Of a DNA stretch of 64,000 bases, positions 1 to 43,892 are shown piece after piece. The stretch's first letter is position 1; every line of letters begins with the position of its first letter. Source of the DNA: Desulfobacterales bacterium (GTDB lineage: Bacteria > Desulfobacterota > Desulfobacteria > Desulfobacterales > JALSRD01); the NCBI GenBank assembly GCA_026984935.1, contig JALSRD010000019.1, forward strand, positions 2,264 to 66,263, written 5' to 3'. Made by a program: the position numbers and the translations under genes. Below the pieces are notes generated by a model, which saw only the letters and a list, made by a program, of their open reading frames with translations, had not been told where the DNA came from and ran no database searches.

Positions 1-2
1 CC

Positions 3-389
3 ATTTACTCTGTTTTCAAAGACAATCTCGAAATACAAGGTTCCTCATTTGAGCAGTTCGAGGAGTACGCTCGCAACATCGAAAGGGAACACAACCGGAA
101 TCTGACCGCAGAGCGAAATGGCTTTCTACATGTCGACCTTGAATCCCTGCGCACATTGATTGTTCGTGTGCAGGGTCTGACCGCATCTTCGGAAGCACCA
201 TTCACTGACCCTTGCGGCGTCATTCTCAAAGCCAATTCGGGTACATACGTTCATAAGGGAGATATTCTCGCTGCTATACGCTGCGTGGACGCTTTTGCGG
301 ATGAGATGCTAACACGTGTTGCAGCGGCACTCCCTATAATGAACGAGCCGATTCCGGACTTACACTTTAGGGAGGTGCACCATGGGTAA
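3..389 (+). CDS. Pyrimidine/thymidine-nucleoside-phosphorylase-like protein, C-terminal part (5' end lies outside the window)
   Basis: Frame 3 is open from the window edge to TAA at 387-389. The tail GFLHVDLESLRTLIVRVQGLTASSEAPFTDPCGVILKANSGTYVHKGDILAAIR fits the PYNP C-terminal domain pattern (D..GV.L....G..V..GD.L..I). Its stop overlaps the next start (ATGGGTAA). Confidence 0.5.
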   Translation: MYSVFKDNLEIQGSSFEQFEEYARNIEREHNRNLTAERNGFLHVDLESLRTLIVRVQGLTASSEAPFTDPCGVILKANSGTYVHKGDILAAIRCVDAFADEMLTRVAAALPIMNEPIPDLHFREVHHG

Positions 390-3300
390 ATACTGCTGCT
401 TCCTCTGTCCTAGTAAGGATTACACAGATAAAGCATTAACCGACCCCTGCCCGACTTGCGGACGTCTATACGGCTTTCCTCTTACACACCCTCCAACCAA
501 GATAGGAGAATATAGTGTCGAAGAGACGCGCGGGCGAGGATTCTATGCGGTGACTTATTTGTGTCATCGGGGTCGCCTGAAGCGTCCATACATTCTCAAA
601 GTATGCCCACGTTCCATCTACAGCTTTTTTGGAAAGGACTTTGACGCCGAGTGCCAGACACATCTCGATGTAGCACGAGATACTGAACACATCGTTCCGA
701 TCAACGATTACTTTGATACATCCGTAGAGTTTGGCCACACAACTATTGAATGCCATGTGGCCGTTATTGATTTTGTCGAGGGCGTTCCACTCGACCAGTA
801 CCTTGGGGGATCGGACACCATCCCCGCACGCAGCATTGCACAGATAGCTATCGATCTGTTTCGCATATGGCGGGAGTTCACCAACAAGATGAAATATCAT
901 AACGATCTTCACGCAGACAATATTATCATCCAACAGTTGCGTGAGGATGCTAGGCGGGCGGAAGCGATTGATGAGACCTTGCGTGCCGTAGCGATTGACC
1001 TCGGTTCTGTTAGTGATGCCAGCAAGAGCGATTCATGTGATCTCAGATTTGGAGATCAGCACTGGTTATGTCGTCATCTTCAGGGAATGATCGACAAGTT
1101 GCGGGGAGGCTACCGTGATCTTGACAAGGTAGATGATCTAGAAAACAGGATAGCGGAGGCTTTGGAGCGGACGGTCAATTTCCTTCTTCCAAGTGCAAAT
1201 TCCGGAAGGGTACCGACTGCCGATCAACTCATGCGGATAGTACGTGATAATTTTTTTCGGAGTTCTTCGCCTTGGAAAGAACATTTGAAGCTTAACCGAT
1301 TTGATGATTCTTATAATGCAGGTGCTCTTGAGCCATGGTACGTTCCTTTCCTGTTGGTTGATCCTGATGACCTATGGATTAAGCGCATCAGTGCCGCTGG
1401 TCCGCTCCTTATCACAGGCATGAGGGGCTGCGGGAAAACTATGCTGCTCAGAGCTTTAGACTTCCATGCAAGAGCTGCACTGAAAAACGATGAATCCATA
1501 TCGGATGTTGTTGAAAGGATTAAAAACGACAACTATGTTGGACTGTTCGTCTCTTGCATGAATTTGCTTACGATACCTGGACGTTCAGAGACTCCGGCAC
1601 CGCTGGAGAGGCTGTTTTGTGCATACTGTATAGAAATCATTCGGGCGGTAAGGCACCTGCAAGAGTTGGATCGAACCGTTGTTGTTCCCAATTATCACGA
1701 TAACATCGTTGAAGCTTTTGAAACCAATATGGAAATCCAAATAGATAAAAACGCCTTGCACACTGACTATGACTTTGAGCGTTTCCTATTGAAGATAAAT
1801 GCTTCTCTCAAAAATCCTGATTTTAATTGCTCGCTAAGAACTTCACCAGCAGATGCCTTTGTTGCACTTGGAGAAGCTGCGAGGCATTGCACGCCGTTGT
1901 GGAATACTGCCAGAGTGTTCTTTCTGCTTGATGATGTGAGTACGAGATATCTACGAGAGGATTTGATCAAAACAATTTTTTCCGTTCTCTTGTTTCAAAG
2001 TCCTGTCGGTGCGTTTAAACTTACCACCGAAGCACAGACACTGGAGATGGCTCTTTATTCGCCGGGTCTGGTTGAGAAAGCACGTGTGGGAAGAGATTAC
2101 GATGTATTCGATCTTGGTGCAGAAGTTTATGAAAAGACCAAGTCAAGGCCTAAAACCGGAAAATTATTTATTGAGGAAATTCTTGAACGAAGAGCTCAAT
2201 ACTATCCGAACCATCCTAATGTATCACCGCGGGAAATTTTAGGTGACTGCGCGTTGGAAGATGTTGCGCGAAATATAACAAAAACCAGTGAAACTTCTCG
2301 AGATCGAAAATCAGTATATCACGGTATATCGGTACTATCGGCAGTCTGTGTTGGAGATATCGGAGATGTTATCAGTATATATGAATTAATCTTAAAAAAG
2401 GCCGCTGGTGAGTCATATCCGGTTAAGCCTGAGATACAGTCTGAATGTTATCAGAGTTTCTGTAGTCGCAGATTGTATGACTTAAATAGGCGTGAAAGTG
2501 ATTTAAAAGACTTTGCGCTCACATTTGCTGAAGCTTCCTATGAGCTTCTGTTAAAATCCAGTAAAAATATTGGTCGATCAAAAAGAAAGCGTCTTCGCCA
2601 ATATAGCAGTATCTATGTGAGAGTGACTACTGGAGACACAAGGAAACAATTTCAGCGTCTCCGGGAATTAATTGATGCTGGTGTTTTTGTTCTGCATGGC
2701 GGCACACCAAGAACAAAGACCAGAGACGGTGATCCAATCCAACAATTTAAATTAACCTATCGAAAGTTGTTTGGGTTGTCCAACTTTATAGGTCTTTCAG
2801 AAAGCGACAGATTCGAACTATCTGGCGAAAAACTTGAAGAATGGTTAATGCACCCTGAAAAAGGCAAAGAAATATTGCTTAGGAATTTAGGAGGAGGGGT
2901 ACTAAAAACGGATCAAAAAGATCAGTTGGAAAGAGCGGAGGAGTTAAAACCTGACCGAAAAGAACATCAAGCTTTTCAGCAGATGCCTTTGTTTGAAACT
3001 GTTCAACCAGTTATTGAAGAAGTGTTTTTTAATGGTGATCTTGGAATATGCACTACACCAGATATTCCGAAAGAAAGGTTAGCAATAGATCAAATCGATA
3101 TTTCAAAAATGGGGCCAAACGACATTGATGTAATCGTTTTGGGGTTGGGTTTTGAGGATCGCAGCTTAGAGTCTACAAAACGATTATTTGAACATTTAAA
3201 ACCCAGCAAAGCCATTCTTGTAGAATATAAGTTGCCGGGAAAAGGTGAAGAAATTGAGCAGATCGTCAAAAAACATGTTAAAAGTGTTAACCGTTTAAAA

Positions 3301-4050
3301 TACAATGATCTTTTATCAAAAGGTTTAATGGTTCCTAATGTACCTGCCCTTATCGATGTATCAGCTCTCGCCAAGCCTGCGCTGTTCTCTGCTGTTCGCA
3401 ACACATTGCATAAACAGGGACAAGTTTGGATCTGCCACACACTTGCAAAGGATTATTATCCGCTCAATACCGATATTGAAAAAGTTATTGCTGCCGATAA
3501 AGATCGAAATCAATACCAACTGCTTGAAGCGCTTTCACAAATATTTACTGGGGAAAAGGGACCATACTCAATAGATGGGCTCATCGAATCGGATGCGGAC
3601 GAATCCCGCAGAAAAGTATTGTGTACATTTGCCTCAGCAAAACATCAAAGGTTGCTGACATTATTGGATATGAGAGATTACGACAGAATCGAAATTATTG
3701 TTCCTCTGAAAGGAACACCTCGCAGTGAAATTGCATATATTGCAGCCGAGATAGCAGGATGGAATTTTAGGGCTTCTGGGATAAATGAAATTCACACAAA
3801 CGATTTGCAAGGCACTGTTAATCTGTTGATAAACCAATATAGCCATTGGTACGTTGACAGGGGGTATAATTTGGAGTTCGGATTGACGGGATCAAAGATG
3901 CAGGCTGTTGCTTGTGCCGCGGTTAGTGTTGTTTGTAAAGTTGCCCACTGCTGGTATGTCAGCCCGCAAGAATTTGATCCTAAGAGGTTTACAAAAGGAA
4001 TAGGTGAATCGCGCTATTATAAGATAAAAAGAACAGAAACAAAAAAGTAA
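382..4050 (+). CDS. Giant multidomain protein: zinc ribbon + protein-kinase-like domain + P-loop NTPase + C-terminal tandem Rossmann-like (CARF-like?) module
   Basis: 1222-aa ORF. CxxC..CxxC at aa 5-26. Kinase-like motifs: YILKV (aa 70-74), HNDLHADN (nt 898-921), IDLGS (nt 994-1008). Walker A GMRGCGKT (nt 1417-1440) and Walker B FFLLDD (nt 1918-1935). The C-terminal region, aa ~914-1215, has two alpha/beta halves carrying IDVSALAKP and FGLTGSKMQ (nt 3880-3900). Confidence 0.85.
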   Translation: MGKYCCFLCPSKDYTDKALTDPCPTCGRLYGFPLTHPPTKIGEYSVEETRGRGFYAVTYLCHRGRLKRPYILKVCPRSIYSFFGKDFDAECQTHLDVARDTEHIVPINDYFDTSVEFGHTTIECHVAVIDFVEGVPLDQYLGGSDTIPARSIAQIAIDLFRIWREFTNKMKYHNDLHADNIIIQQLREDARRAEAIDETLRAVAIDLGSVSDASKSDSCDLRFGDQHWLCRHLQGMIDKLRGGYRDLDKVDDLENRIAEALERTVNFLLPSANSGRVPTADQLMRIVRDNFFRSSSPWKEHLKLNRFDDSYNAGALEPWYVPFLLVDPDDLWIKRISAAGPLLITGMRGCGKTMLLRALDFHARAALKNDESISDVVERIKNDNYVGLFVSCMNLLTIPGRSETPAPLERLFCAYCIEIIRAVRHLQELDRTVVVPNYHDNIVEAFETNMEIQIDKNALHTDYDFERFLLKINASLKNPDFNCSLRTSPADAFVALGEAARHCTPLWNTARVFFLLDDVSTRYLREDLIKTIFSVLLFQSPVGAFKLTTEAQTLEMALYSPGLVEKARVGRDYDVFDLGAEVYEKTKSRPKTGKLFIEEILERRAQYYPNHPNVSPREILGDCALEDVARNITKTSETSRDRKSVYHGISVLSAVCVGDIGDVISIYELILKKAAGESYPVKPEIQSECYQSFCSRRLYDLNRRESDLKDFALTFAEASYELLLKSSKNIGRSKRKRLRQYSSIYVRVTTGDTRKQFQRLRELIDAGVFVLHGGTPRTKTRDGDPIQQFKLTYRKLFGLSNFIGLSESDRFELSGEKLEEWLMHPEKGKEILLRNLGGGVLKTDQKDQLERAEELKPDRKEHQAFQQMPLFETVQPVIEEVFFNGDLGICTTPDIPKERLAIDQIDISKMGPNDIDVIVLGLGFEDRSLESTKRLFEHLKPSKAILVEYKLPGKGEEIEQIVKKHVKSVNRLKYNDLLSKGLMVPNVPALIDVSALAKPALFSAVRNTLHKQGQVWICHTLAKDYYPLNTDIEKVIAADKDRNQYQLLEALSQIFTGEKGPYSIDGLIESDADESRRKVLCTFASAKHQRLLTLLDMRDYDRIEIIVPLKGTPRSEIAYIAAEIAGWNFRASGINEIHTNDLQGTVNLLINQYSHWYVDRGYNLEFGLTGSKMQAVACAAVSVVCKVAHCWYVSPQEFDPKRFTKGIGESRYYKIKRTETKK

Positions 4051-4066: not shown

Positions 4067-4477
4067 GTGGTCGACAATTTGACACCTAAACAACGCAGCT
4101 ACTGTATGTCCCGAATCAAGGGAAAGGATACGGGAATCGAGACATCCGTCCGTTCAGAGCTTCACCGACGTGGCCTTCGGTTCCGCAAGCACGTCAAAGA
4201 CCTGCCCGGTAAACCGGATGTCGTTTTCAGCAAGGCCAAGGTGGTTGTGTTTATCGACGGTGATTTCTGGCACGGATATCGGTTCTCGTCGTGGGAGCAC
4301 AAGGTGTCGGATTTCTGGAAAGAAAAAATTACCAAAAATCGCGCGCGCGACAAAAAAAATCACAGAAAACTGAAAGAGATGGGCTGGACGGTGATCCGAC
4401 TTTGGCAGCATGACTTAAAGCGTGATTTCGATGGATGTATTGAAAAAATCGTGTCGGCAGTACGAGGAGCTTCTTAG
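4067..4477 (+). CDS. vsr: Very-short-patch-repair (Vsr) family endonuclease
   Basis: 136 aa with a GTG start 17 nt after the previous stop. Strong family pattern: RSYCMSRIKGKDTGIE, PGKPDVVF...VVFIDGDFWHG, KNRARD...L...GWTVIRLWQ. Confidence 0.9.
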   Translation: MVDNLTPKQRSYCMSRIKGKDTGIETSVRSELHRRGLRFRKHVKDLPGKPDVVFSKAKVVVFIDGDFWHGYRFSSWEHKVSDFWKEKITKNRARDKKNHRKLKEMGWTVIRLWQHDLKRDFDGCIEKIVSAVRGAS

Positions 4478-4656
4478 GGCGCTCAGGTACGAACGGGCTT
4501 TGGTCGATGAGGAACTCGGCCAGCGCCAGCGGGCGCGCAGCGAGCTCGAGAAGCTCTACGCCGAGGCCCCGGACTATGAAGACGTGGCAATTAAATTAGA
4601 TTAGGGTTGTAGTCGTGGAACTGGAGACCTGGGTTATGATATCACCGCGTTTGATA

Positions 4657-4682
4657 TGGCAGCGGGAATCGAACCCACGTCC
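4657..4682 (-). other. tRNA (or tmRNA) 3'-end-like fragment (T-arm plus partial acceptor); probable integration-site remnant
   Basis: The minus-strand sequence GGACGTGGGTTCGATTCCCGCTGCCA has a GTGGG/CCCGC stem around a TTCGATT T-loop. The upstream sequence does not fold into D or anticodon arms, so this is not an intact tRNA. Confidence 0.45.
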
Positions 4683-5321
4683 ATTCTCTGTTTGGGGAAA
4701 ATGTGGAGAAAAACATTTCCCGCAGCTGGACGCGGAGAACGGCACTTGGAAGCTCTCAAGGTGTTGTAAATAGAGGCGTTTTGATGTGTCGACGCTGGGG
4801 AGACTGAATTTCTGGAAGGCGGCATTCCCTCCACCATTTGAAAAAAGACGAACCGGTCCAATTGCCGCGCACGCCACGTCTGGTGGTTTATTTTTCTCGT
4901 GATGGTAATGTGTTACGGCATTCCTTGCTGCCGCCAATTGACCTTGCTGTCACCCGGTTTTCGCGAAATCCGGGTGAAAAGACGCTTCTCTTCGATAATT
5001 TTTCTCTGAATTTTCAACTTCCACTTTCGAACCTCGTCCGGTTCGAGACATCTTTTCCTGCAGTCTCTGCACTGTAAGCCGCTCGAAAACCCTGCCAATC
5101 CGTAAAAGAGTTCGTTGATGCCCACGGTAAAACGTACGTTCCGTACCTCGGAACCGTGGGACCCGGAACAATTCAAATGCCCGCTAAATCAAGCATATGA
5201 TGTATTTTGCAATCCCTGGTGCAGGTCCTCCAAAGAATCGAAGGTGCGCCATGATCGACGACGAACGGTTTGTAAAAAATCCGACATCTCAAAGAATACG
5301 AGGACCTCAACGCCCTCCTAG

Positions 5322-5720
5322 ATCGCCGGCCAACTGGATCTGGATCCCCGCACGATACGCAGGTGGATCGATGAGCTGGGCTTCCTGCCCTTCGACAAGG
5401 CCGGTGCCGACCTGCTCTTCCAGGTCATCAGCCCGCGTTATGAACAGGCCGCTTTGGTAATCACCTTAAACCGCGCCTACAAGGACTGTCCCGAGATCTT
5501 CAACAACAACAGCCTCCTTACGTCCGCTATCCTCGACCGCCTGCTGCACCATGCCGAAACGGTGCTCATCGAAGGTAGAAGCAACTGCATGAAAGACCAG
5601 GTCGAATCCTGCTCTCCCTATCTCCCGTTGCCGGAACCATCATCTCGGTTCCGGCAACTATCTTTACTCACAAAATCCAGATGCATTTTAGACAGGTGGT
5701 TTAGAGACATTTTCACGTAG
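5322..5720 (+). pseudogene. IS21-family IstB helper ATPase remnant (C-terminal third only)
   Basis: The frame is open from 5322. IDELGFLPFDKAGADLLFQVISPRYEQAALVITLNRAYKDCPEIF...SAILDRLLHHAETVLIEGRS matches the IstB Walker B to C-terminus pattern. The N-terminal two thirds and istA are absent. Confidence 0.7.
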
Positions 5721-6282: not shown

Positions 6283-9200
6283 ATGATTGATGGGAATTCG
6301 GTCTATTTTCATGAACCAGGCCAGCTAAGCCGGGGTGCTGTTCTGGATGTTGGATTAAAATGTTCGCACTCCTGCCGGTTTTGTTATTACAGCTTTATGG
6401 ACGGATCAGATAAGCAATTCAGGGGGATGAGAAAAGCTAAATTTCGGACTACAGAGGAGTTGAAAGAAATTCTTTCATTGTTAAAGAAAAAGGGGTTCAT
6501 TAATTTTGATGTTACTGGAGGTGAACCCACTTTACACACAGGAATTATAGAATTGATGCGTTATGCGCATCAAGACCTTGGACTAAACGGACGGATTATC
6601 ACTTTGGGCCAATTCTTGGTACGCAAACCAAAATACCTGATTAAAAAATTGTTTGATGCAGGCATTGTGAATTTCCTGTTTTCATTGCACGCGGTTGATG
6701 AAAAATCTTTTCAGAGAATAACTGGCGAGAGCTTTAACCGCCTACGTAAAGCAATGGATTTTTTGGACGAGAAAAGCTTTCAGTATTGCTCTAATACAAC
6801 AGTATTTGAATGGAACTACAAATCTCTTCCGGATATTGCCAGAGAAGTGCTATCACACGGAATTTATCTTCACAATTTTATTTTAATGAATGCCTACTAC
6901 CACTGGAATAAGGGCGGAAAGTCCTTCGGAGTTCAGGCAAAATATTCTCAAGTTTTGCCTTATCTTTCTGAAGCTGTATCCATTCTGGAAAGTCATGACA
7001 TTGCTGTAAATATCCGATATGCGCCCATGTGCGCGGTTAAAGGGCTTGAGAAAAATCTTGTTGGTGTTGTGGGCGTACGTTACGATCCATATGAGTGGAT
7101 GAATCGGGCTGGACACTTTGGCGGTCCACCTAGTGTTTGTGCTGATAAATATCCGATTAAACAAGGTGAAATCGAGAAAGCTTATGCTTTTATTCCACAA
7201 AAACTGAAAATGCCGAATGGTATCCGCGTTATCGGTATGCGGGGAAAACACTTTAAATATTTTAGTAGCAAGTGCCACAATTGTGCAGCAATAAATGTTT
7301 GTGATGGGGTGGATCCAAACTATTTGGCCAATTATGGAGATAATGAACTAATCCCTTATGAAACTGATCTCGGGGTAGGGCCTGTAGCTTCACCACGACT
7401 TGCCTATACACCCCCTTTTTTTGTTAAAACGAATCAATCTTCTGACATGAAGTCTATTTGCAAGGAAGCCTTCAACAAATGGCGTCAAAACCTAAACAAA
7501 AGTCATGACCACTGTTTTGCGAAGCCATCAATTGAGTTATGCCATAATAAACATCCCCTTATTTCTGTGATCATCCCCTGCTATAACCAAGCTCGTTATC
7601 TTGGAGAAGCAGTCACCAGTATTGTCGGCCAATCCTATGAAAACTGGGAAATTCTGATAGTCAATGATGGAAGTACAGATAATACCCATCCTGTTGCTGT
7701 TCAAATCATCAACCACTACCCGAATAAGCCCATTCGCCTGATTGACAAAAAAAATGGCGGTGTTGCCGACAGCCGTAATAGAGGAATCGAAACCGCTAAC
7801 GGCACGTGGATTCTTCCATTGGATGCTGATGACAAATTTAAACCTTCATTCTTGGAAAAGGCCGTTTCAGCGATCGAGGAGGATTCCAATCTAAACCTGA
7901 TATTTTCCAATGTGCGCCAGTTTGGCGCACAAAACGGAGCTTGGGTGCCGAACGAGTATTCTGAGTTGAAGATCATCGAAGAAAACTGTTTTCCCTATGC
8001 TTCTTTGTTCAAAAAATCCATCTGGCTCAATATAGGCGGTTATAGTCAGGTTCTTGGTAAAGTCATGCAATTGGAAGACTGGGATTTCTGGATTCGTGCC
8101 TCCAGGATGGGCATTAACGCTCACCGAATACCAGAGCAGCTCTTTCTGTACAGAGTCCACGACTCCAATATATACTATCAGGTTATCTTGCCCCGCATGG
8201 CCGTTGCCAAAGCGCTGACGGTTACCGCTAACGCCAACTTATATGAATTGAGGTATATTGAGCATTGCTGGCAAATAATCTCGAACTGTGACCAGGATAC
8301 TGAACAGAGAATCAGAAATACCTTATCAGCGTATCCTAAACACGCCCTTCCCTACTTTTGGTTAGGTTTGAAGTTTGAGGGATCCAAAAGCTATGAATCT
8401 GCCGTGACTTATTATCGAAAAGCGATTGAAAAGGGCGGAGAAAACGTGTGGCAGGCTTATCACCGACTCGGAATGATGCAGAAGCATTACCTTGGCTTTC
8501 CATCTAAAGCGATGGATGGCCCAGGTAATGTTTTACTTAGCGGCGAGGCCCAGGAAAATATCGCGAAAGCAAGGCGCCTGTACTACAGTTACAACCACTC
8601 TATGAGAGTTAAAAATACCTCACGAACCCTAAGGATTCTTTTTTATTATGAAGGCTTTCATAATAAAAATCGGCCATATGCCGGAACTGCTAAGGCGATA
8701 CAACAGATAGCAACTGCTCTTATAACAAGGACGGATTTTTCCGTTATAATTGTCGGTGACCATGTGCAGCGGACGGAAAAACTCGCCGATCGGTTGATAA
8801 TTCATCCAACACCTGACTCCAACTCCGTCGACTTCATAAAGAGATATGACATTGTCTTTTTCGCCACCCATACGGGCTGTTTTGCTACTGTCCCAAAGCC
8901 AGCTGAACAACGTTGGATTCTTCTGCAGCACTGCTGGGATTTTGATATACAGGCATGGAAGCGGATCGACGACTTTGATAAAATTATTTGTGTATCTAGA
9001 CCCCAGAAAGAGCGTTTTACCCGTATTAGAAGGATTGCACAAAAAATCGCAATAATACCCAATGGTGTCGATACCAACCATTTCAAAGAAAGTGTTATTA
9101 AAGGCAGAAAGCTCCACAGCATTATGTTTGCCGGAGCTATTGTCCCCCACAAGAATGTTCATATTCTAATTGAGGCCTTTCGCCTCCTCAAGCAGGACGT

Positions 9201-12200
9201 CACCGACGCAGAGCTTCATATCTATGGCAGCGCTTCCATGTGGAGCGGAGCTCCAGAAGATTACCAAGAAAGACTCCAAAAGGTAAAAGCCAACGGTGTG
9301 TTCTTTCACGGTGCTATCCCCAATGAAGAGATGCCAGACAATTATGCACGGCATAGCATACTTGTATTACCATCCTCTCTTGAAAGCTTCGGTTTGGTTA
9401 CTATAGAAGCGCAGGCATGTGGTTGTATTCCAGTCGTTTATCGCACTGGCGGTACAGAAGACACCCTATTAGATGGAAAAACAGGCTTTTTCTATACTGA
9501 CAATACCCCAAAATCTCTTAAGGCAACCATCAAGAAAGCGTTTAGGGCCATCGAAACCGACCCAGAAATGCGCCAGGCCGCGAGAAAATTTGTACTCAGT
9601 AATTTTGGTCTTGATTTAACTTCAAATAAACTCCTTCACCTCATTAAAAATCTCGGTATTCAAAACAACAAGACTCTGACCTGTATTGCAGTCCCAGGAA
9701 CCACTGATGAAAATCAAGTTATTAGATCCCAAAGTGCCCCTATTGATTGTAGCAAAGGAATGCAACGCATAGCAAAAAACACGTCCTATGCCGCCTGTCT
9801 CAGTAAAGCCGCCGAAGAATTTGAGGTAAAGGATACAGTCCGAAACACTGTTTCAGCTTTGGTCTGTAAAAGAGAAGCTGTGCTCCCTGTCCATTTTTTC
9901 ACAATCGTGTTAAACGGTCAGCCATTTATACGTCACCACATTGATGTATTTAAAAAACTTCCTTTTCAGTGGTATTGGCACATCGTCGAAGGTGTCGCCG
10001 CGCTGAAAAACGACACTGCATGGAGTTTACAATTCGGCGGTCGCATAGAAAACAAATTTCACCGCAACGGCTTGAGCAACGACGGCACCACAGAATACCT
10101 TGATTCGCTGGCCCAAGAGAATCCCGGACAAATCCACATTTATCGCAAACCCAAAGGCGTGTTCTGGGATGGCAAGCTCGAAATGGTGAACGCACCGCTG
10201 AAGAATATCACCGAGCCATGCCTGCTGTGGCAGATCGACGCTGATGAGCTCTGGACCGTCGAGCAAGTTACAACTGCGCGGCAGATGTTCATAGACAATC
10301 CAGGAAAAACCGCAGCTTACTATTTCTGCCACTACTTTGTAGGCCCCGACCTTATTACAACAACCCGTGACACATACGGCAATCATAGCGAATACGAGTG
10401 GCTGCGTACCTGGCGCTATCTTCCGGGAGACCACTGGGAATCTCATGAACCACCCCGGTTGCGCCGGCCCTCCGTTTCCGGTCCGATGAAGGACATCGCC
10501 GCCCTGCATCCTTTCAGTCACGCCGAAACGGAAAAACAGGGGCTTGTTTTCCAGCATTTCGCTTATGCCACCGAGGCGCAGGTTCGTTTCAAGGAAAATT
10601 ACTTTGGATATAAAGGTGCTGTACAAGGATGGAAAAGGCTGCAACGCCAAGAGCGCTTTCCTGTATTCTTGCGAAATTTTTTCCCCTGGGTGACAGATGA
10701 AACAAAAGTTGATCGAGCATCTGCTTTAAATCTGATTCCAATTGCAAAAAAAGATCCGTCTGGAAAATGGGAATTTAACCTTCCTACGCAACAAATTTCT
10801 AAAACCAGAATATTGGCTTCATCTATTCCTAAAAAGATTCTCTGGATTCGTACTGATTCAATCGGAGACACTATCTTATCGGCATCAATGTTACCGGAAA
10901 TTGTAAAAAATTATAAAGCCGTTTCAATTTTCGTGGTCTGTCAGGAACATGCATCCGAAATCTATGCAGCCTGCCCGTTTGTGGACAAAGTCATCGGCTT
11001 CGACCGTAAACGCATGTATTCCGATGAGTCCTACCAGCGGGAAATTCTCCAACGCCTGAACACCCTTTCGATCGATCTTGCCGTCAACTCGGTATTCTCC
11101 AGCGAACCGTTGACGCATTTTCTCACCCTCAAATCAGGTGCCCGTAAGACCATCGGTATACAAGGAGACTTGTGCAACATCGACCTGGAGAATCAGTCGC
11201 AATTTTTAAAAAACTACACCCAGGTCTGCACCATTGATTCAGCCAGCCATAGCGCTGAACTGGGACGTCACAGAGCCTTCCTCGCCTCTTTCGGCATTGA
11301 TGCCTCTTCCCTGGCCCCCGTTATATGGACAACTTCCGAAGACGAACATTTTGCCGATGATTTTTTCCGCAAAAATGAACTAGTTCCAGAAAAGACCATC
11401 GCCTTGTTTGCGGGCGCACAGTCCGGCATCAGATATTACTTTCAATACGGCAGGGCATTGTCGATGGCATTGGAAAATGATCCCGACTACTGTGTTCTGG
11501 CGTTGGGCTCGGATCATGAAAAAACCATCAATCAAAAAAACCTGGATGCAACAGGCCTGAGAACTTTCAACTTGTGTGGTCAAACGACCATTCGGCAGGC
11601 GGCTGCAATCATCAAGCGCTGCCGCCTGGCTGTCGGCGCCGAAACCGGGCTGGCGCACGCGACATGTGCCGTGGGAACTCCCAATGTCGTCCTCCTCGGG
11701 GGCGGGCACTTCGGGCGCTTCATGCCCTATTCTCCGCTCACCACCGTGGCATGCCTGCCGCTGTCGTGCTATGGCTGCAACTGGCAGTGCCGCTATGAAC
11801 GGCCTTATTGCATCAAGGATCTTTCACCGCATGTTCTAGCCGAAGCCGTAAAGGCGGCCTTTGCTTCAGCATCGAACAAAATGCGTATTGTAACCCAGGA
11901 CCGGTCGTCCTGGAAACCTGCAGCCGATATGCCGGAATGGCGTCTTCCCGATATTGCAAATGATGCGAAACGTTTTGAGATCATGTCCACGTTCGCATCC
12001 GCTGGCAAGAGTTTATCGGACGTGCTGAACGATGAGGGAGAAGCGCTGTTTGCCCGGGGAAAGGCAGAAAACGCGCGTTCTACTTTTGAAAAGGCGTCGG
12101 CGGCGGACCCGCAAGATGCCCGCGCACACAACAACCTCGGCGTCGTTTACCATCGGCTGGGAAGAGAAGAGCAAGCCCTTGCACACTACCAGAAAGCCGT

Positions 12201-15200
12201 CGCCTTGGCACCCAATGCAAAAACCTATCAGAAAAATCTGGCTGATTTCTACTGTGTGGCGCTGGGAGAAATCGAAAAGGCCATGCAACTGTATGTAAGC
12301 GTGCTTAGAAAAGATCCCCGGGATGCAGAAGCTTTGCGGGCCATGGGCCGAATTTGCCAGGCACTGGGCCGGAGCACGGACGCGCAAAGCTTCTTTCAGA
12401 GGGCACAACATGCTGATCTCCAGGATGAAAAGGCATCTGAAAACCCGGCACAACTTTCCTTACCCCCCCAAAGCCGTCGCTCCGAGTTTTCCATAGAGGC
12501 TACCGCCAATGGCCCAGAAAGCGATTATCACCACCAATACCTGGTATCCGCCATTGTCTCAACCTACAATGCCGAACGGTTCATCAGGGGCTGTATGGAG
12601 GATCTGGAGAGGCAGACGATTGCCGACCGTCTTGAAATCATCGTCGTCGACAGTGGTTCACAGGAAAATGAGGCCCAAATCGTCAGGGAGTTCCAGCAGC
12701 GTTTCCAAAACATAAAATACATCCGCACCGAACAGCGCGAATCTGTTTACGCGGCCTGGAACCGCGGCATTAAAGCAGCATCGGGCAAATACATCACCAA
12801 TGCCAACACCGATGACCGGCATCGCGGAGATGCCTTCGAAGTGATGAGCTCCATCCTGGAAACCCTGCCGGAAATCAGCCTGGTATATGCAGATGTCATC
12901 ATCACAAAGACCGCAAACGAAAGCTTCAAGCACTGCACCCCGGTGGGGTTCTACCGTTGGATGAACTTCAATCGCGATGACCTGCTCAACAAAGGTTGTT
13001 ACGTGGGCCCGCAACCCATGTGGCGCCGACAGGTGCATGACGAATACGGCTACTTCGACGAAACCTTCGTGACTTCCGGCGACTACGAATTCTGGCTGCG
13101 CATTTCCCAGACAGGCACCTTTCTGCACATCCCCGTTCTGCTGGGTCTCTACCTGAAATCCCCGCACAGCATCGAGCATGCCAACCGCGACCGCCAGGCC
13201 GAAGAAAATCGCCGCATCTTTAAAATGTACGCCGACGCCAAGTCCTCCGGTGAAGTCCTCGGCCGCATAAATCCTCCGGACAAGCTTCCGGTTGACGGCT
13301 CCGCGGGGCCAAAACCGGCTGAAAATCTCTACAAGGATGTACAGGGACTGATCCGCAAGGGGGAATACGACCCGGCTGTTGAAAAACTTAAGCTTATGAC
13401 AGCAGAATTTCCGCATTTTGCTCCGCCATACAACGATCTGGGGATACTTTATCACAGCCGGGGGGATCTGGAAACGGCCCTGTCATCCTACCAGAAAGCT
13501 GTTGAACTCGCGCCGGAAAATGCCACTTTTCAGAAAAACCTGGCCGATTTCTACTGCGTGGCGCTGGGTAAAATCGAAGCCGCCATGGAAATCTATGTGC
13601 GTGTGCTGCAACGGGATCCCCTTGACATCGAAGCCCTGCTGGCCATGGGTTATATCTGCCGCAGGTTTGAGCGCTTCGAGGATGCCAAAAGCTTTTACGC
13701 GCGCGTGCTTGAAATCGATGCGGATAATGAGACCGCCCGCAGGTTCATGGGGCTTGCTGAACCGTCCAGGGCCGAAACCGATGATACTCCGCTTTCCGCT
13801 GAAACGGCATATGAACAACTGCTGGAAGACATGCAGCACGATCCGCTGGATGCCGGCATTGCCAAGATCAGTGCTTTTTTAGCGGCCTTTCCGGACCTGG
13901 CACACGCCCACAGCGACATCGGCGCTTTGTACCAGCGTGCCGGGGCTTCCGACAAGGCTGAAAAACACCTGCAAAAAGCCGCCCTGCTCGCCAAAGACAA
14001 TCCGCAGTTTCAGAAAAACCTGGCGGATTTCTACCTTGTCGAACGCGATCGGAAAGAGCCGGCCCTGGAAATTTATCGCCGGCTTTTGGATAAAGACCCT
14101 GGCAACAAACAACTTCTCCTGCTGGCCGGGCATGTCTGCGTCGCACTGAAGCGCCTGTCGGATGCCGCCGTTTTTTACCGCCGCTTGCTTGCCGAAGACC
14201 CTGGTAATACGGACGCCCGCACGAACCTGGAAGCCATTGAAGGAATTGAAGAAGCGCATGACAAAAAAAGTCCGCCTCCGGGAAAAACGCCGCGGGGCAA
14301 GGTGTTGCAGGAGCCGGGCGATGGGAGCACAGCCCAGCTTGATGCGGCACCGGCGGAAGGACCTGACGACCCGCAGGTTTCGATCTTGATTTCGGCTTCA
14401 GGCCCTGTGAACCGGCTGCGCAGCCGCGTGCAGGCCATCGAACGGCATACCGACACGCCGTATGAACTGATCTTTCTGGATAGTGGCGTCACCAAAGGAA
14501 CGGATCAATGGCTGCAACAGTTCTTGGACCAGAACGATCACGGGCACCGCATCCGATGCGGGCACGCAACCAACGCCGCAACTGCAGTTAATGCCGGTAT
14601 CGCGGCGAGTCACAGTAAAATGATTCTGCGGTTATCCAATGACGTTGAAGTCACCCCGGGATGGCTGGCTTCGATGATAACGCACCTGGAACGTAATGCC
14701 GATACCGGCATCGTCGGCGCCATGTCCAATGTCGCCGCCGAACGCCAGAAAGCACCCTTGCCATGGAGCAAAGGTGAAGACACATTGGCAAAGTTTGCAG
14801 CGGCTTACCGGCAGCGGAACCGCCATCGCCGCATACCCGCCAATACTATAGACGGGTTCTGTATGCTTTTTACCCGCCAACTTTTCGAAAACATCGGCCC
14901 CTTCGACGAAGAACTGGGCCAAGGCGGCTATGATGGCGAGGACTTCTGCCTGCGGGCCACGCTGGCCGGCTGTCAGAATCTGATCGCCGGCGATGTCTAT
15001 CTGCACCGCCACCTCAAAAAGAAGCCTCCACGGGACAAAAAGGCCTTTACCTTAAAATGGAGCGGTGCTGACGTCAAAACACCGGCAGGCAAAAAGTATC
15101 TTGCCCTGTTGACAGAACGCAAAGCCCGCCGGGCCTGGCAGGCCGAACGTGTCGACGAAGCCGGAGAACTTTTTCTGCAGGCCATCGGTCTGCAACCGGA

Positions 15201-43545: not shown

Positions 43546-43654
43546 CCGGAGGCGCACGCACCAGCTGTGCACATACCTCCGCCCCCTTCCGGCCCATCCC
43601 TGCGGCCGAGAAATACCTTGCCAAGTGAACCCCGTAATGATAGGAAATCCGCGT

Positions 43655-43745
43655 ATTCCGAGCAGGGGTGTTCTGGCGGGCTCAGAACTGAGAGCATACC
43701 CTTTGAACCTGATACAGTTCGTACTGTCGGAGGAAAATCGGAGGA
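43655..43745 (+). promoter_or_regulatory. TPP (THI-box) riboswitch
   Basis: GAGCAGGGGTG...GGCTCAGAACTGAGAGCATACCCTTTGAACCTGATACAGTTCGTACTGTCGGAGGAA contains the conserved GGGGTG, CTGAGA, ACCC..GAACCTGAT and GGA-rich closing elements. It lies upstream of thiW. Confidence 0.8.
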
Positions 43746-43892
43746 CGCAGACCGTGGCGTGAAAGGCAACCGGTTACAACCCCAGGCCTTCCGCCGGATC
43801 CTTCCCCTGAGTTTTTTCAAAGCAACATTCGGGTAATCCACCGGGCCGCGGAGCCGACACCGGCAGCGGATTCCGATCATGCGGAGATCTCC

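Follow-up and report, generated by a model that had tools for sequence, protein, structure and literature searches.

A CARF_STK_AAA protein, linked to a Dcm methylase, as the candidate centre of a CRISPR-independent defence module

The plus-strand ORF at 382-4050 of the 64-kb window (the whole stretch of DNA analysed) was confirmed to encode a real, intact protein of 1,222 residues which almost certainly belongs to the CARF6 CARF_STK_AAA family. Residues 1-1217 matched positions 1-1186 of 1187 of the PADLOC model PDLC01925 'CARF6--CARF_STK_AAA' with 1473.5 bits; weak MAD6 and mad8 matches were also present. The domains follow one another in the order zinc ribbon, kinase-like domain, ORC/Cdc6-like AAA+ ATPase, probable winged-helix region, linker and tandem CARF-like module, and the gene lies in an operon with the order Dcm, pyrimidine-nucleoside phosphorylase (PyNP)-like protein, CARF_STK_AAA, Vsr. 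A role in defence or conflict is likely. We tentatively propose, at somewhat less than even confidence, that the gene is central to a defence module, linked to Dcm and independent of CRISPR, in which the CARF and AAA+ parts would act as the sensor, the kinase would be an output and the effector would be interchangeable. The features of the locus are:

1-389, plus strand: 3´ end of the upstream partner gene (last 128 codons and stop), a divergent pyrimidine-nucleoside/thymidine-phosphorylase homologue
369-389, plus strand: junction of the partner and CARF_STK_AAA genes, read from the sequence
382-4050, plus strand: whole CARF_STK_AAA gene, a single ORF of 1222 aa
394-459, plus strand: N-terminal zinc ribbon, C6-x-x-C9 ... 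C23-x-x-C26 (aa 5-26), from Cys conservation
499-1281, plus strand: kinase-like domain (aa about 40-300), from Pfam Pkinase, the family profile against the PDB and residue invariance
1306-2607, plus strand: ORC/Cdc6-clade AAA+ ATPase (aa 309-742), from Pfam PF24389, an AF2 model and Foldseek
2608-2889, plus strand: conserved alpha/beta region (aa 743-836), from invariant columns and predicted secondary structure
2890-3117, plus strand: variable acidic linker (aa 837-912), with little sequence conservation
3118-3606, plus strand: CARF-like Rossmann half 1 (aa 913-1075), from AF2, Foldseek and a motif
3607-4047, plus strand: CARF-like Rossmann half 2 (aa 1076-1222), from AF2, Foldseek and conserved residues
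4067-4477, plus strand: Vsr very-short-patch-repair endonuclease (136 aa; TIGR00632 E 7e-38, Pfam Vsr E 3e-27)

More than 846 homologues were found, almost all of them close to 1220 aa in length; the family is sparse and patchy, occurring in 126 of 185,579 species genomes. A preliminary description of this DNA had called the architecture unusual. The domain composition stands, but the combination of zinc ribbon, kinase, AAA+ and CARF is not new: a single sentence published in 2014 gives exactly such an architecture, including the Arg inside the P-loop (Makarova et al., 2014; PMC4012209). The protein shares with the 2014 family the same profile end to end, the domain order and Arg348 in Walker A, and the neighbourhood listed for Chitinophaga pinensis (Vsr, Dcm, COG0213 and kinase; PMC4012209, supplementary file 8) is the same as here. 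In the 2014 text a wHTH follows the CARF domain, whereas the AF2 model has a second Rossmann/CARF-like half at the C-terminus and the winged-helix-like region (aa 743-836, assigned with low confidence) precedes the CARF module. A literature search found no experimental paper on the CARF_STK_AAA family.

All of the motifs quoted in the preliminary description were found in the translation where it had placed them. They are kept across an alignment of 38 full-length homologues (46-85% identity), which indicates that they are not chance strings:

aa 5-10 (nt 394-411, plus strand): CCFLCP
aa 23-26: CPTC
aa 50-55: RGRGFY
aa 70-74: YILKV
aa 173-180: HNDLHADN
aa 205-208: (I)DLG
aa 346-353: GMRGCGKT (Walker A)
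aa 513-518: FFLLDD (Walker B)
aa 916-928: DVIVLGLGFEDRS (C-terminal half 1)
aa 991-999: IDVSALAKP (half 1)
aa 1078-1089: KVLCTFASAKHQ (C-terminal half 2)
aa 1166-1174: FGLTGSKMQ (half 2)

The zinc ribbon suggested earlier was borne out by conservation of its CxxC...CxxC ligands, as 36-37 of the 38 homologues retain C5, C6, C23 and C26, and position 9 always holds a potential zinc ligand (C, D or H). The kinase core also holds up. The family profile searched against the PDB matched Hanks-type kinases over aa 42-185 (S. aureus PknB-type 4eqm, E 3e-7), and homologues carry Pfam Pkinase matches; the protein itself matched positions 1-163 of the 263 in the Pkinase model over aa 44-228, with 19.2 bits, below the family threshold of 31.7. 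One homologue matched the defence kinases PD-T4-6 (E 3e-10) and, weakly, PglW (E 1e-5). The landmarks are a Gly-rich stretch (R52-G-F-Y55), Lys73 (kept in 36 homologues, R in the other two), Glu90, H173-N-D175...N180 and D206-L-G208, with E90, H173, N174, D206 and the catalytic Asp and Asn (D175 and N180) invariant in all 38. Because the catalytic residues are all invariant, a pseudokinase is excluded by sequence. No recognisable APE motif or canonical C-lobe was found in the kinase-like domain, and HND-type catalytic loops recall small-molecule kinases, suggesting that the substrate need not be a protein.

The P-loop NTPase of the preliminary description could be assigned more sharply to the ORC/Cdc6 clade of AAA+ ATPases, with a match to Pfam PF24389 (ORC-CDC6-like, E 1.2e-20, above threshold). 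For the AF2 model of this region (m7d25be6c4489; pLDDT 74.7, core >85), Foldseek returned ORC4 (4xgc_D), Orc1 (2v1u), Cdc6/Orc1 (2qby), RdrA (8hr8 and 8fnt) and BrxC (9zdx). Walker A (G346-M-R348-G-C-G-K352-T353) has an invariant Arg within the P-loop; R348, K352 and T353, as well as D517 and D518 of Walker B, are kept in 38/38 homologues, and E550, R571 and R604 are also invariant. The following region (aa 743-836; model pLDDT 39-86) carries an invariant basic stretch, GG-x-x-R777-x-K779, together with D809-R-x-E-L-x-G815. Since its position matches that of the winged helix after the AAA+ lid in ORC/Cdc6 proteins, it is probably, with low confidence from the model, a winged-helix-like nucleic-acid-binding domain. 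The linker beyond it is all 'x' in the alignment consensus and falls below pLDDT 50 at the end of the ATPase-region model.

The two alpha/beta halves proposed for the C-terminus were recovered as Rossmann-like halves in an AF2 model of the last 327 residues (mcf193850c988; pLDDT 88). Foldseek ranked Can1, a tandem-CARF protein, first among PDB structures (E 3.5e-6, probability 1.0, TMq 0.48); Crn1, Cam1, Cad1, Csm6 and other CARF and SAVED proteins came next. Conserved residues in half 1 lie after strand 1 (G921-L-G-F-E925-x-R927) and after strand 4 (D992-x-[TS]-G/A-L-A-K998-P), with D992 in 38/38 homologues, T or S at position 994 in 36/38 and K998 in 37/38. In half 2 they are S1085-x-K1087-H1088-x-R1090 after strand 1 and E1165-x-G-L-T1169-G-S-K1172 after strand 4, with K1087, H1088, R1090, E1165, G1170, S1171 and K1172 invariant in 38/38 homologues. 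The D992-V-S-A-L-A-K998 stretch is an exact fit to the CARF signature [DN]x[ST]xxx[RK], the ligand motif after strand 4 (PMC4012209). Both motifs had been described as similarly placed; the placement is right, directly after strand 4 of each half, but T1169-G-S-K1172 is spaced one residue shorter, so that their form is not identical. The CARF hypothesis is thus supported by the PADLOC match, the best fold match, the motifs after strand 4 and weak profile matches, namely of half 1 to three other CARF6 profiles (E 0.006-0.02) and of the half 2 equivalent in homologue P0029 to a CARF3 profile (E 0.003). A specifically Card1/DUF1887-type assignment was not upheld, as the Pfam search gave no DUF1887 match and the catalogue clade is CARF6.

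We think it very unlikely that the module is a generic Rossmann-like or SLOG-like pair whose likeness to a CARF sensor comes from the fold and a glycine-rich phosphate loop. Such a pair would be consistent with the low TM-scores to CARF proteins (0.23-0.48), with the short-chain dehydrogenases and methyltransferases (generic Rossmann proteins) in the same match list at E 1e-3 to 1e-2, with a viral structure library that returned methyltransferases and glycosyltransferases only, and with the lack of any CARF family match in the Pfam search of the protein or of mutual sequence similarity between the halves. However, every probability-1.0 match was a CARF or SAVED protein, the best being the one solved tandem-CARF protein; the strand 1 and strand 4 motifs, with the exact half 1 signature, fit the published definition; CARF3 and CARF6 profiles match weakly; and CARF specialists filed the family as CARF both in 2014 and in a later catalogue. 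On balance, we lean slightly towards the module binding a small nucleotide-like ligand.

Can1 (Thermus thermophilus TTHB155, PDB 6sce), a DNA nickase activated by cA4, also carries two CARF domains, non-identical in its case, on one chain, an arrangement that would create a ligand site within the polypeptide. It shows 11% sequence identity, has PD-(D/E)xK nuclease domains in place of the kinase and AAA+, and is encoded with type III CRISPR-Cas, whereas the CARF_STK_AAA gene has no cas linkage. The likeness raises the prospect of an ancillary type III effector acting in trans, in which cyclic oligoadenylate (cOA) from a distant Cas10 would bind the CARF module and thereby activate the kinase and ATPase; the protein would then resemble Can1, Csm6 or Cad1, except that its output would be phosphorylation. 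Consistent with this, the best fold matches (Can1, Crn1, Cam1, Cad1 and Csm6) bind cOA, the Lys/Thr/Ser motifs at the CARF ligand site are conserved, the PADLOC model derives from a CARF catalogue, and most genomes with CARF proteins in 2014 also had cas1 or cas10 (PMC4012209). We nonetheless consider it decidedly improbable: the 64-kb window has no CRISPR array, no cas-like cluster recurs within 7 kb across the 66 loci, from at least 11 phyla, of our neighbourhood survey, and the constant partners are Dcm and the nucleoside-phosphorylase homologue. Ten contexts with precomputed Pfam annotation also contained no cas genes.

At the operon level, the ATG of the CARF_STK_AAA gene (382-384), preceded by a Shine-Dalgarno sequence (AGGGAGG) at 369-375, lies just ahead of the TAA stop of the partner (387-389). 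The shared 8 nt, ATGGGTAA, imply that the PyNP-like gene would be translationally coupled to the CARF_STK_AAA gene; an overlap of this type (d=7) was also called in ~20 other loci. The window edge cuts the partner gene, and the fragment is identical to the C-terminus of a 407-aa ORF on locus L001, which differs from the window by 2 mismatches in 4869 nt; the complete partner is thus ~407 aa. On the other side, the vsr gene starts 16 nt downstream. Vsr normally accompanies a C5-cytosine methylase, and the cognate Dcm is encoded just upstream of the window (L001 250-1350). Within the window, GC content is low (0.40-0.49 vs 0.55-0.65) and an IS21 remnant lies nearby, features that, like the patchy distribution of the family, fit a defence island.

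The full-length partner matched pyrimidine-nucleoside phosphorylases in the PDB (5ep8, E 5e-17; 1brw, E 7e-17), and its homologues gave weak Glycos_transf_3 and PYNP_C matches, most members falling below the Pfam thresholds. Compared with these NP-II phosphorylases, to which it is homologous over its full length, the partner keeps S83, T84, G85, G86, K108, R168, S183 and K187, and with them part of the phosphate loop, but has Ala for H82 and Gly for S110 and T120, is variable at K81 and sits in a defence rather than a salvage operon. We take R168, S183 and K187 to be the base-binding residues of PyNP and His82, Ser110 and Thr120 to be its canonical phosphorolysis site, roles that reportedly come from the structure paper on the G. 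stearothermophilus enzyme. Having lost the latter three, the partner may not be a phosphorylase.

The PyNP-like partner was present in 49-50 of the 66 loci, usually overlapping the start of the CARF_STK_AAA gene. Dcm was encoded within 10 kb in 60, of which 26 had it as the immediate neighbour on the same strand, and 39 loci had Vsr at up to 10 kb. The diversity of the Dcm sequences, and of their arrangement, favours a functional link over inherited hitch-hiking. The same associations could point to the restriction arm of an unconventional restriction-modification system, with Dcm protecting self, the AAA+/winged-helix region scanning DNA for unmethylated sites, the partner acting on DNA or nucleotides and the CARF-like module serving only an allosteric or structural purpose. 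ORC/Cdc6 relatives, among the fold matches, bind DNA; Mrr or UvrD-PD-(D/E)xK nucleases adjoin the gene in several loci; and BREX/Pgl systems, to which the weak PglW and BrxC matches lead, provide precedents for joining a methylase, a large ATPase (BrxC/PglY) and a kinase (PglW). Even so, we judge this rather unlikely, given that Pfam detected no nuclease domain in the protein or its usual partner, that six loci lack Dcm within 10 kb, that the winged-helix assignment is of low confidence and that the strongly conserved CARF pocket residues argue for ligand binding.

Other proteins adjoin the CARF_STK_AAA gene in five loci, all without the PyNP-like partner: an AbiC-like protein with an overlapping gene in two loci of one genus (L051 and L052), a TIR protein in one (L027) and Mrr in two (L065 and L067). 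The TIR gene and the upstream mrr gene of L067 are 260-530 nt away, and their proximity could be coincidence within a defence island. In at least five loci Dcm is directly upstream and the partner is missing altogether; two of these (L019 and L066) show only Dcm, the CARF_STK_AAA gene and Vsr. The small number of loci with an alternative neighbour weakens the case for a swappable effector. The loci without any partner speak against the mechanism as a whole, as do the moderate score of the best CARF match (TMq 0.48) and the neighbourhoods of the 66 loci, in which no enzyme able to make a cyclic oligonucleotide (cyclase) recurs.

These loci also bear on what the partner does. It might make or destroy the CARF ligand, for instance by splitting a nucleoside or nucleotide to free a base or a ribose phosphate, leaving the kinase as the sole output. 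The retained base-binding residues beside a remodelled phosphate site would suit such an activity, partner-less systems show that the kinase can be the sole output, and the generation of second messengers has been suggested as a role for domains of the nucleoside-phosphorylase superfamily in other conflict systems (PMC7159879). Against this, AbiC-like, TIR and Mrr proteins are typical effectors, not signal makers, and loci with only Dcm, the kinase gene and Vsr would have no signal source. We regard a ligand-making or ligand-breaking partner as unlikely, and an effector as a reasonable possibility, if slightly short of an even chance.

RADAR is comparable in that RdrA, an ORC/Cdc6-related AAA+ ATPase of defence, is likewise encoded together with an enzyme acting in nucleoside or nucleotide metabolism, the adenosine deaminase RdrB. 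RADAR has no kinase, CARF domain or methylase link, and its effector is a deaminase rather than a phosphorylase homologue, so that the likeness is one of functional analogy only. RdrA and BrxC, both among the best fold matches, offer structural precedents for the pairing of an AAA+ ATPase with a nucleotide-altering effector. BREX type 2/Pgl (PglW kinase, PglX methylase, PglY/BrxC ATPase and PglZ) and the methylation-associated MADS share DNA methylation, a large P-loop/AAA+ ATPase and a Hanks-type kinase. Membership of either was rejected: their methylase is an N6-adenine enzyme, whereas the operon here encodes a C5-cytosine methylase together with Vsr and has no PglZ, and the CARF_STK_AAA protein fuses kinase to ATPase and includes a CARF module.

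The kinase, the ATPase and both CARF-like pockets keep all key residues. In the proposed Dcm-linked module, we infer that the two CARF-like halves would form a pseudo-dimer within one chain, much as those of Can1 do, and that their ligand would be derived from a nucleotide. The CARF module would act jointly with the AAA+ ATPase and the basic winged-helix-like region, which possibly reads DNA, to control an ATP-dependent switch or oligomerisation. Dcm methylation would mark self DNA or otherwise restrain the module, and the role of Vsr would be limited to the repair of T:G mismatches arising from 5-methylcytosine deamination. Once thrown, the switch would activate the fused kinase, which would phosphorylate host or phage targets, and the co-encoded effector. 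The latter would usually be the divergent PyNP homologue, breaking down pyrimidine nucleosides or nucleotides; some genomes may use an AbiC-like membrane protein, a TIR protein or an Mrr nuclease instead.

The 1222-aa protein encoded near the start of the window is the product of one long ORF, which is followed closely by a gene for a very-short-patch-repair endonuclease (Vsr):

369-375: Shine-Dalgarno sequence AGGGAGG, ahead of the ATG of the 1222-aa ORF
382..4050, + strand: CARF_STK_AAA gene, single long ORF, 1222 aa
4067..4477: Vsr gene, 16 nt after the CARF_STK_AAA gene

Residues 1-1217 of the protein aligned to positions 1-1186 of the 1187-position PADLOC model PDLC01925, 'CARF6--CARF_STK_AAA' (1473.5 bits, E=0), and the protein has the N-terminal zinc ribbon, the kinase domain and the AAA+ domain with an arginine inside the P-loop by which this family is recognized. 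The arginine is part of the 2014 family description (Makarova et al., 2014; PMC4012209) and is the invariant Arg348 of the motif GMRGCGKT. The preliminary description, in which zinc ribbon, kinase, NTPase and CARF-like modules were read as an unusual single-polypeptide architecture, was accurate as to the domains. The architecture itself is not new: a description dates from 2014, the catalogue name is CARF6 CARF_STK_AAA, and profile sets for defence annotation have included it since about 2020. Public databases also contain the identical protein sequence (P0001). No experimental or functional study of the family was found in the full-text papers searched, a set that does not include the 2020 CARF census (NAR 48:8828).

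The gene was detected in only 126 of 185,579 species genomes. Neighbourhoods were sampled at 80 loci from named genomes, and the counts below use the 66 at which the gene is complete and the flanks are sufficient. The family occurs in at least 11 phyla, and the 80 loci have members in the Desulfobacterota, Acidobacteriota, Alpha-, Beta- and Gammaproteobacteria, Planctomycetota, Verrucomicrobiota and Nitrospinota as well as in the Actinomycetota, Bacteroidota, Bacillota, Patescibacteria and Zixibacteria. The family is widespread but sparse. It is essentially chromosomal, the one plasmid match being on a 512-kb Loktanella replicon.

Homologues of the protein number more than 846, nearly all of them 1200-1260 aa long, and conservation was counted in an alignment of 38 of these (46-85% identity). 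Every motif quoted in the preliminary description was found in its place, and these motifs are the most conserved columns of the alignment, confirming a set far beyond chance. For the zinc ribbon, the ligands C6, C23 and C26 are kept in 36-37 of the 38 homologues and position 9 is C, D or H in every one, so that C6/C9/C23/C26 are invariant or nearly so. The Walker A residues G-M-R348-G-C-G-K352-T353 and the Walker B residues D517-D518 are invariant. Near the C terminus, G921-L-G-F-E925-x-R927, D992 and K998, together with K1087-H1088-x-R1090, E1165 and G1170-S1171-K1172, are likewise invariant or nearly so.

The kinase-like core held up on closer analysis. Over aa 42-185, a family profile compared with the PDB matched Hanks-type kinases from bacteria and eukaryotes (4eqm, E 3e-7), matches to Pfam Pkinase (PF00069) are precomputed for many homologues, and one homologue matched the defence kinases PD-T4-6 (E 3e-10) and PglW (E 1e-5). 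The beta-3 Lys (Lys73) is kept in 36 of 38 homologues, and Glu90, His173-Asn174-Asp175, Asn180 and Asp206 in all 38; the alpha-C Glu, the catalytic-loop Asp and Asn (D175 and N180) and the DFG Asp are thus present, in a region that aligns to both Pkinase and PknB. In the window protein itself, PF00069 scored below the gathering threshold (16.7-19.2 bits vs a cut-off of 31.7), and the alignment covered only model positions 1-163 of 263, from the N-lobe through the DFG equivalent; a complete C-lobe (activation segment, APE, subdomains VIII-XI) was not recognized. The most fitting name is a minimal or atypical kinase-like domain: the catalytic core is intact, and a substrate-binding C-lobe is not recognizable. 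Judged by sequence, the domain is not a pseudokinase. The catalytic loop at 898..921 (aa 173-180) reads H-N-D-L-H-A-D-N and is without the Lys of the HRDLKxxN loop typical of Ser/Thr kinases. The His-Asn-Asp start and the missing Lys recall the Brenner motif of choline/aminoglycoside-type small-molecule kinases, and the substrate might not be a protein.

The P-loop NTPase is an ORC/Cdc6-clade AAA+ domain. Residues 309-742 matched Pfam ORC-CDC6-like (PF24389) at E 1e-20, with 74.3 bits vs a cut-off of 27, and K352, T353, D517 and D518 are invariant in the 38 homologues, in agreement with the NTPase originally proposed. Modelled with AlphaFold, aa 296-850 (overall pLDDT 74.7, mostly >85 in the core) gave Foldseek matches to ORC4, archaeal Orc1/Cdc6, the RADAR ATPase RdrA, the BREX ATPase BrxC and TnsC, at a probability of 0.99-1.0 for ORC4, Orc1 and Cdc6. 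The segment that follows, aa 743-836, is basic, highly conserved and poorly modelled by AlphaFold; from its position after the AAA+ lid alone, it may be a winged-helix-like DNA-binding region.

The C-terminal module consists of two predicted Rossmann-like parts, half 1 (aa 913-1075) and half 2 (aa 1076-1222), which the preliminary description likened to CARF domains of the Card1/DUF1887 type. The core that defines the CARF superfamily is Rossmann-like and six-stranded, and its strands 5 and 6 make a hairpin. The AlphaFold model of aa 896-1222 is confident (pLDDT 88.2, pTM 0.89) and shows an alternating strand/helix pattern in both halves, with two consecutive strands ending half 2. The best solved-structure match was Can1, a type III CRISPR nuclease with two CARF domains in one chain (6sce; E 3.5e-6, probability 1.0, TMq 0.48), followed by the CARF proteins Crn1/Sso2081, Cam1, Cad1 and Csm6 and the SAVED protein Cap5. 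In CARF domains, the motif for ligand binding is [DN]x[ST]xxx[RK] and sits immediately after strand 4 (Makarova et al., 2014; PMC4012209). In half 1, D992-x-[TS]994-x-x-x-K998 directly follows strand E94-97 of the model and fits this signature exactly; in half 2, T1169-G-S-K1172 directly follows strand E268-272 and keeps the basic residue, with a spacing one residue shorter. The two (S/T)xxxK motifs noted originally therefore stand in full for half 1 and in part for half 2, with both lysines kept. S1085 of half 2 lies just after strand 1 and is kept in 37 of 38 homologues; in place of this strand-1 polar Ser/Thr, half 1 has G-L-G-F-E-x-R-[ST]. Weak matches of the separate halves to other CARF profiles (CARF6, E 0.006-0.02; CARF3, E 0.003, for a homologue) add to the support for a CARF-like module. 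The Card1/DUF1887 assignment was not borne out: neither the whole protein nor the separate halves matched Pfam CARF or DUF1887 at E up to 10, and, whereas the Card1/Can2 CARF nucleases have a fused PD-(D/E)xK nuclease, this protein has no nuclease domain. The resemblance to Can1 is at the level of the fold only.

It is very unlikely that the module is instead a non-CARF Rossmann module, since its best PDB matches are CARF proteins. What speaks for such a module is that the TM values of the predicted model to CARF proteins are only 0.23-0.48, that the same list of structure matches also includes generic Rossmann enzymes at lower ranks, that Pfam gave no CARF match and that the halves are dissimilar. 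Profile-profile comparison (hhalign) found no similarity of half 1 to half 2, which rules out a recognizable internal duplication and leaves any relationship at the fold level only. In a viral structure library, only generic methyltransferase and glycosyltransferase Rossmann matches were found (TM ~0.2). An exhaustive HMMER search with aa 900-1222 returned 256 clusters, essentially all of them the same ~1220-aa protein or contig fragments, and none with a further architecture carrying the module.

Because the window starts inside the gene upstream of the CARF_STK_AAA gene, the full operon was read from L001, a locus that differs from the window by 2 mismatches in 4869 nt. The order there is a C5-cytosine methyltransferase (Dcm; Pfam DNA_methylase, E 6e-59), a 407-aa protein, the CARF_STK_AAA gene and Vsr. 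In the window sequence, the CARF_STK_AAA ATG overlaps the upstream stop codon by 8 nt (ATGGGTAA), which implies translational coupling to this upstream partner. The same set of genes (HTH, Vsr, DNA methylase, COG0213 and kinase) appears for Chitinophaga pinensis as a raw listing in supplementary file 8 of the 2014 paper (PMC4012209).

The 407-aa partner is a full-length, divergent homologue of pyrimidine-nucleoside/thymidine phosphorylases (PDB 5ep8, E 5e-17). The base-binding residues Arg168, Ser183 and Lys187 are kept across the partner family, residue roles here being those of the Geobacillus stearothermophilus enzyme. The phosphate loop is kept in part (Ser83, Thr84, Gly85, Gly86 and Lys108) and K81 is variable. 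Ala replaces H82 in 79% of the family, Gly replaces S110 in 79% and T120 in 83%, and the complete canonical phosphate and catalytic site (K81, H82, S83, K108, S110, T120) was not found in the partner family. Phosphorylase activity is therefore putative. Housekeeping nucleoside salvage by partner and kinase was also considered and rejected; the patchy distribution, the defence-island context and the lost catalytic His argue against it. That the phosphorylase homologue makes or breaks the signal, instead of serving as an effector, is unlikely.

The partner lies immediately upstream of the CARF_STK_AAA gene in 49-50 of the 66 loci. A Dcm-type methylase is found within 10 kb in 60/66, directly adjacent on the same strand in 26; these methylases are of diverse sequence and variable arrangement. 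Vsr is found within 10 kb in 39. Where the partner is missing, other genes can be found beside the CARF_STK_AAA gene: an AbiC-like membrane protein gene overlaps its start in two Pedobacter genomes, a TIR-domain protein is encoded upstream in Rhizobium rhizogenes, and an Mrr-type nuclease is encoded upstream in Ensifer and just downstream in Nitratireductor. In at least five loci without a partner Dcm is directly upstream, and two of these loci (L019 and L066) have Dcm, the CARF_STK_AAA gene and Vsr only. At L003, Dcm and Vsr are fused in one 477-aa protein (4282..5715) beside the system homologue. We also noted a ~970-aa fusion of a UvrD helicase with a PD-(D/E)xK/Cas4-like nuclease, which recurs between Dcm and the partner-kinase pair (L003, L014, L018, L028, L034, L042 and L047) and may provide some of the systems with a nuclease arm.

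The methyltransferase link, strong at 60 of 66 loci, would suit an unconventional restriction-modification system in which DNA sensing outweighs ligand sensing. This reading overlaps the model we favour and is somewhat unlikely. An adjacent nuclease occurs in a minority of the 66 loci only (Mrr in 2, UvrD-PD-(D/E)xK in 7). No CRISPR array was present in the 64-kb window and no recurrent cas-like cluster within 7 kb in the 66 loci or in annotated contexts; over these stretches, no linkage to cas10, other type III genes or an array was found. This lack of local cas linkage weakens the idea of an effector serving type III CRISPR systems in trans, which we regard as decidedly unlikely.

The surroundings of the operon in the window contain the following features:

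5454..5720, + strand: fragment of an IS21-family IstB helper ATPase (last ~50 Pfam model residues, E 6e-8)
6283..17127, + strand: giant glycosyltransferase ORF, single ORF, 3614 aa
17079..18860: TPR/GT9 protein, 593 aa, after the giant ORF
43654..43752, + strand: TPP riboswitch (Rfam RF00059, 59.6 bits, above gathering score)

The first ~10 kb have a GC content of 0.40-0.49, compared with 0.55-0.65 over the remainder, with the lowest value (0.404) at 2001-4000, inside the CARF_STK_AAA gene. The IstB fragment, which has Vsr on one side and the giant glycosyltransferase gene on the other and is accompanied by short ORFs at 4596..5460, is probably the remnant of an insertion or acquisition event. 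Together, the low GC and this fragment fit a horizontally acquired island; the low GC agrees with a horizontal origin of the defence operon and perhaps also of the start of the giant ORF. The 3614-aa product of that ORF is an unusually large multi-glycosyltransferase, with an N-terminal radical-SAM domain, four family-2 and one family-1 glycosyltransferase domains, a GT9 heptosyltransferase-like domain and long TPR arrays. The TPP riboswitch is the only Rfam match in the window and is unrelated to the CARF_STK_AAA gene.

The data establish what the domains are, that the catalytic and pocket residues are intact, that translation is coupled to that of the partner, that the link to Dcm is strong, and that the gene sits in a defence island without nearby cas genes. 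The module probably has a role in defence. The mechanism that we favour is, in full, plausible rather than probable. The two CARF-like halves would form a Can1-like intramolecular site for a nucleotide-derived ligand, and this site and the ORC/Cdc6-like AAA+ domain would set an ATP-dependent conformational or oligomeric switch, the AAA+ possibly reading DNA via the basic region at aa 743-836. Both the fused kinase and an effector from the same operon would be turned on by this switch. Usually the effector would be the remodelled phosphorylase, acting to degrade pyrimidine nucleosides or nucleotides. Dcm might mark self or restrain the module, and Vsr may simply be the repair companion of Dcm. 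There are precedents for such control of a nucleotide-altering enzyme, by an ATPase in RADAR RdrA/RdrB and by a CARF sensor in Cad1 (CARF-deaminase).

The best-understood role of CARF domains is to receive cyclic oligoadenylates made by Cas10 and, in response, to activate nucleases, proteases or deaminases. Here, in contrast, a CARF-like module shares its polypeptide with a kinase and an ATPase of the ORC/Cdc6 type. The constant companions of its gene, instead of cas genes, are those for a cytosine methylase and a remodelled nucleoside phosphorylase. A CRISPR-free CARF pathway with a pyrimidine-type ligand other than a cyclic oligoadenylate, relayed by the AAA+ domain to protein phosphorylation, is a speculative and rather unlikely joint reading. 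The ligand would then be a pyrimidine nucleoside or base, or a ribose-phosphate species, which the remodelled phosphorylase homologue would produce or use up and which might be tied to the 5-methylcytosine status of DNA. If this were true, a CARF sensor would for the first time be seen to act through a kinase, and CARF sensing would for the first time be tied to DNA cytosine methylation. Study of the family could show which signals CARF proteins outside CRISPR systems respond to and in what way defence linked to methylation makes use of phosphorylation.
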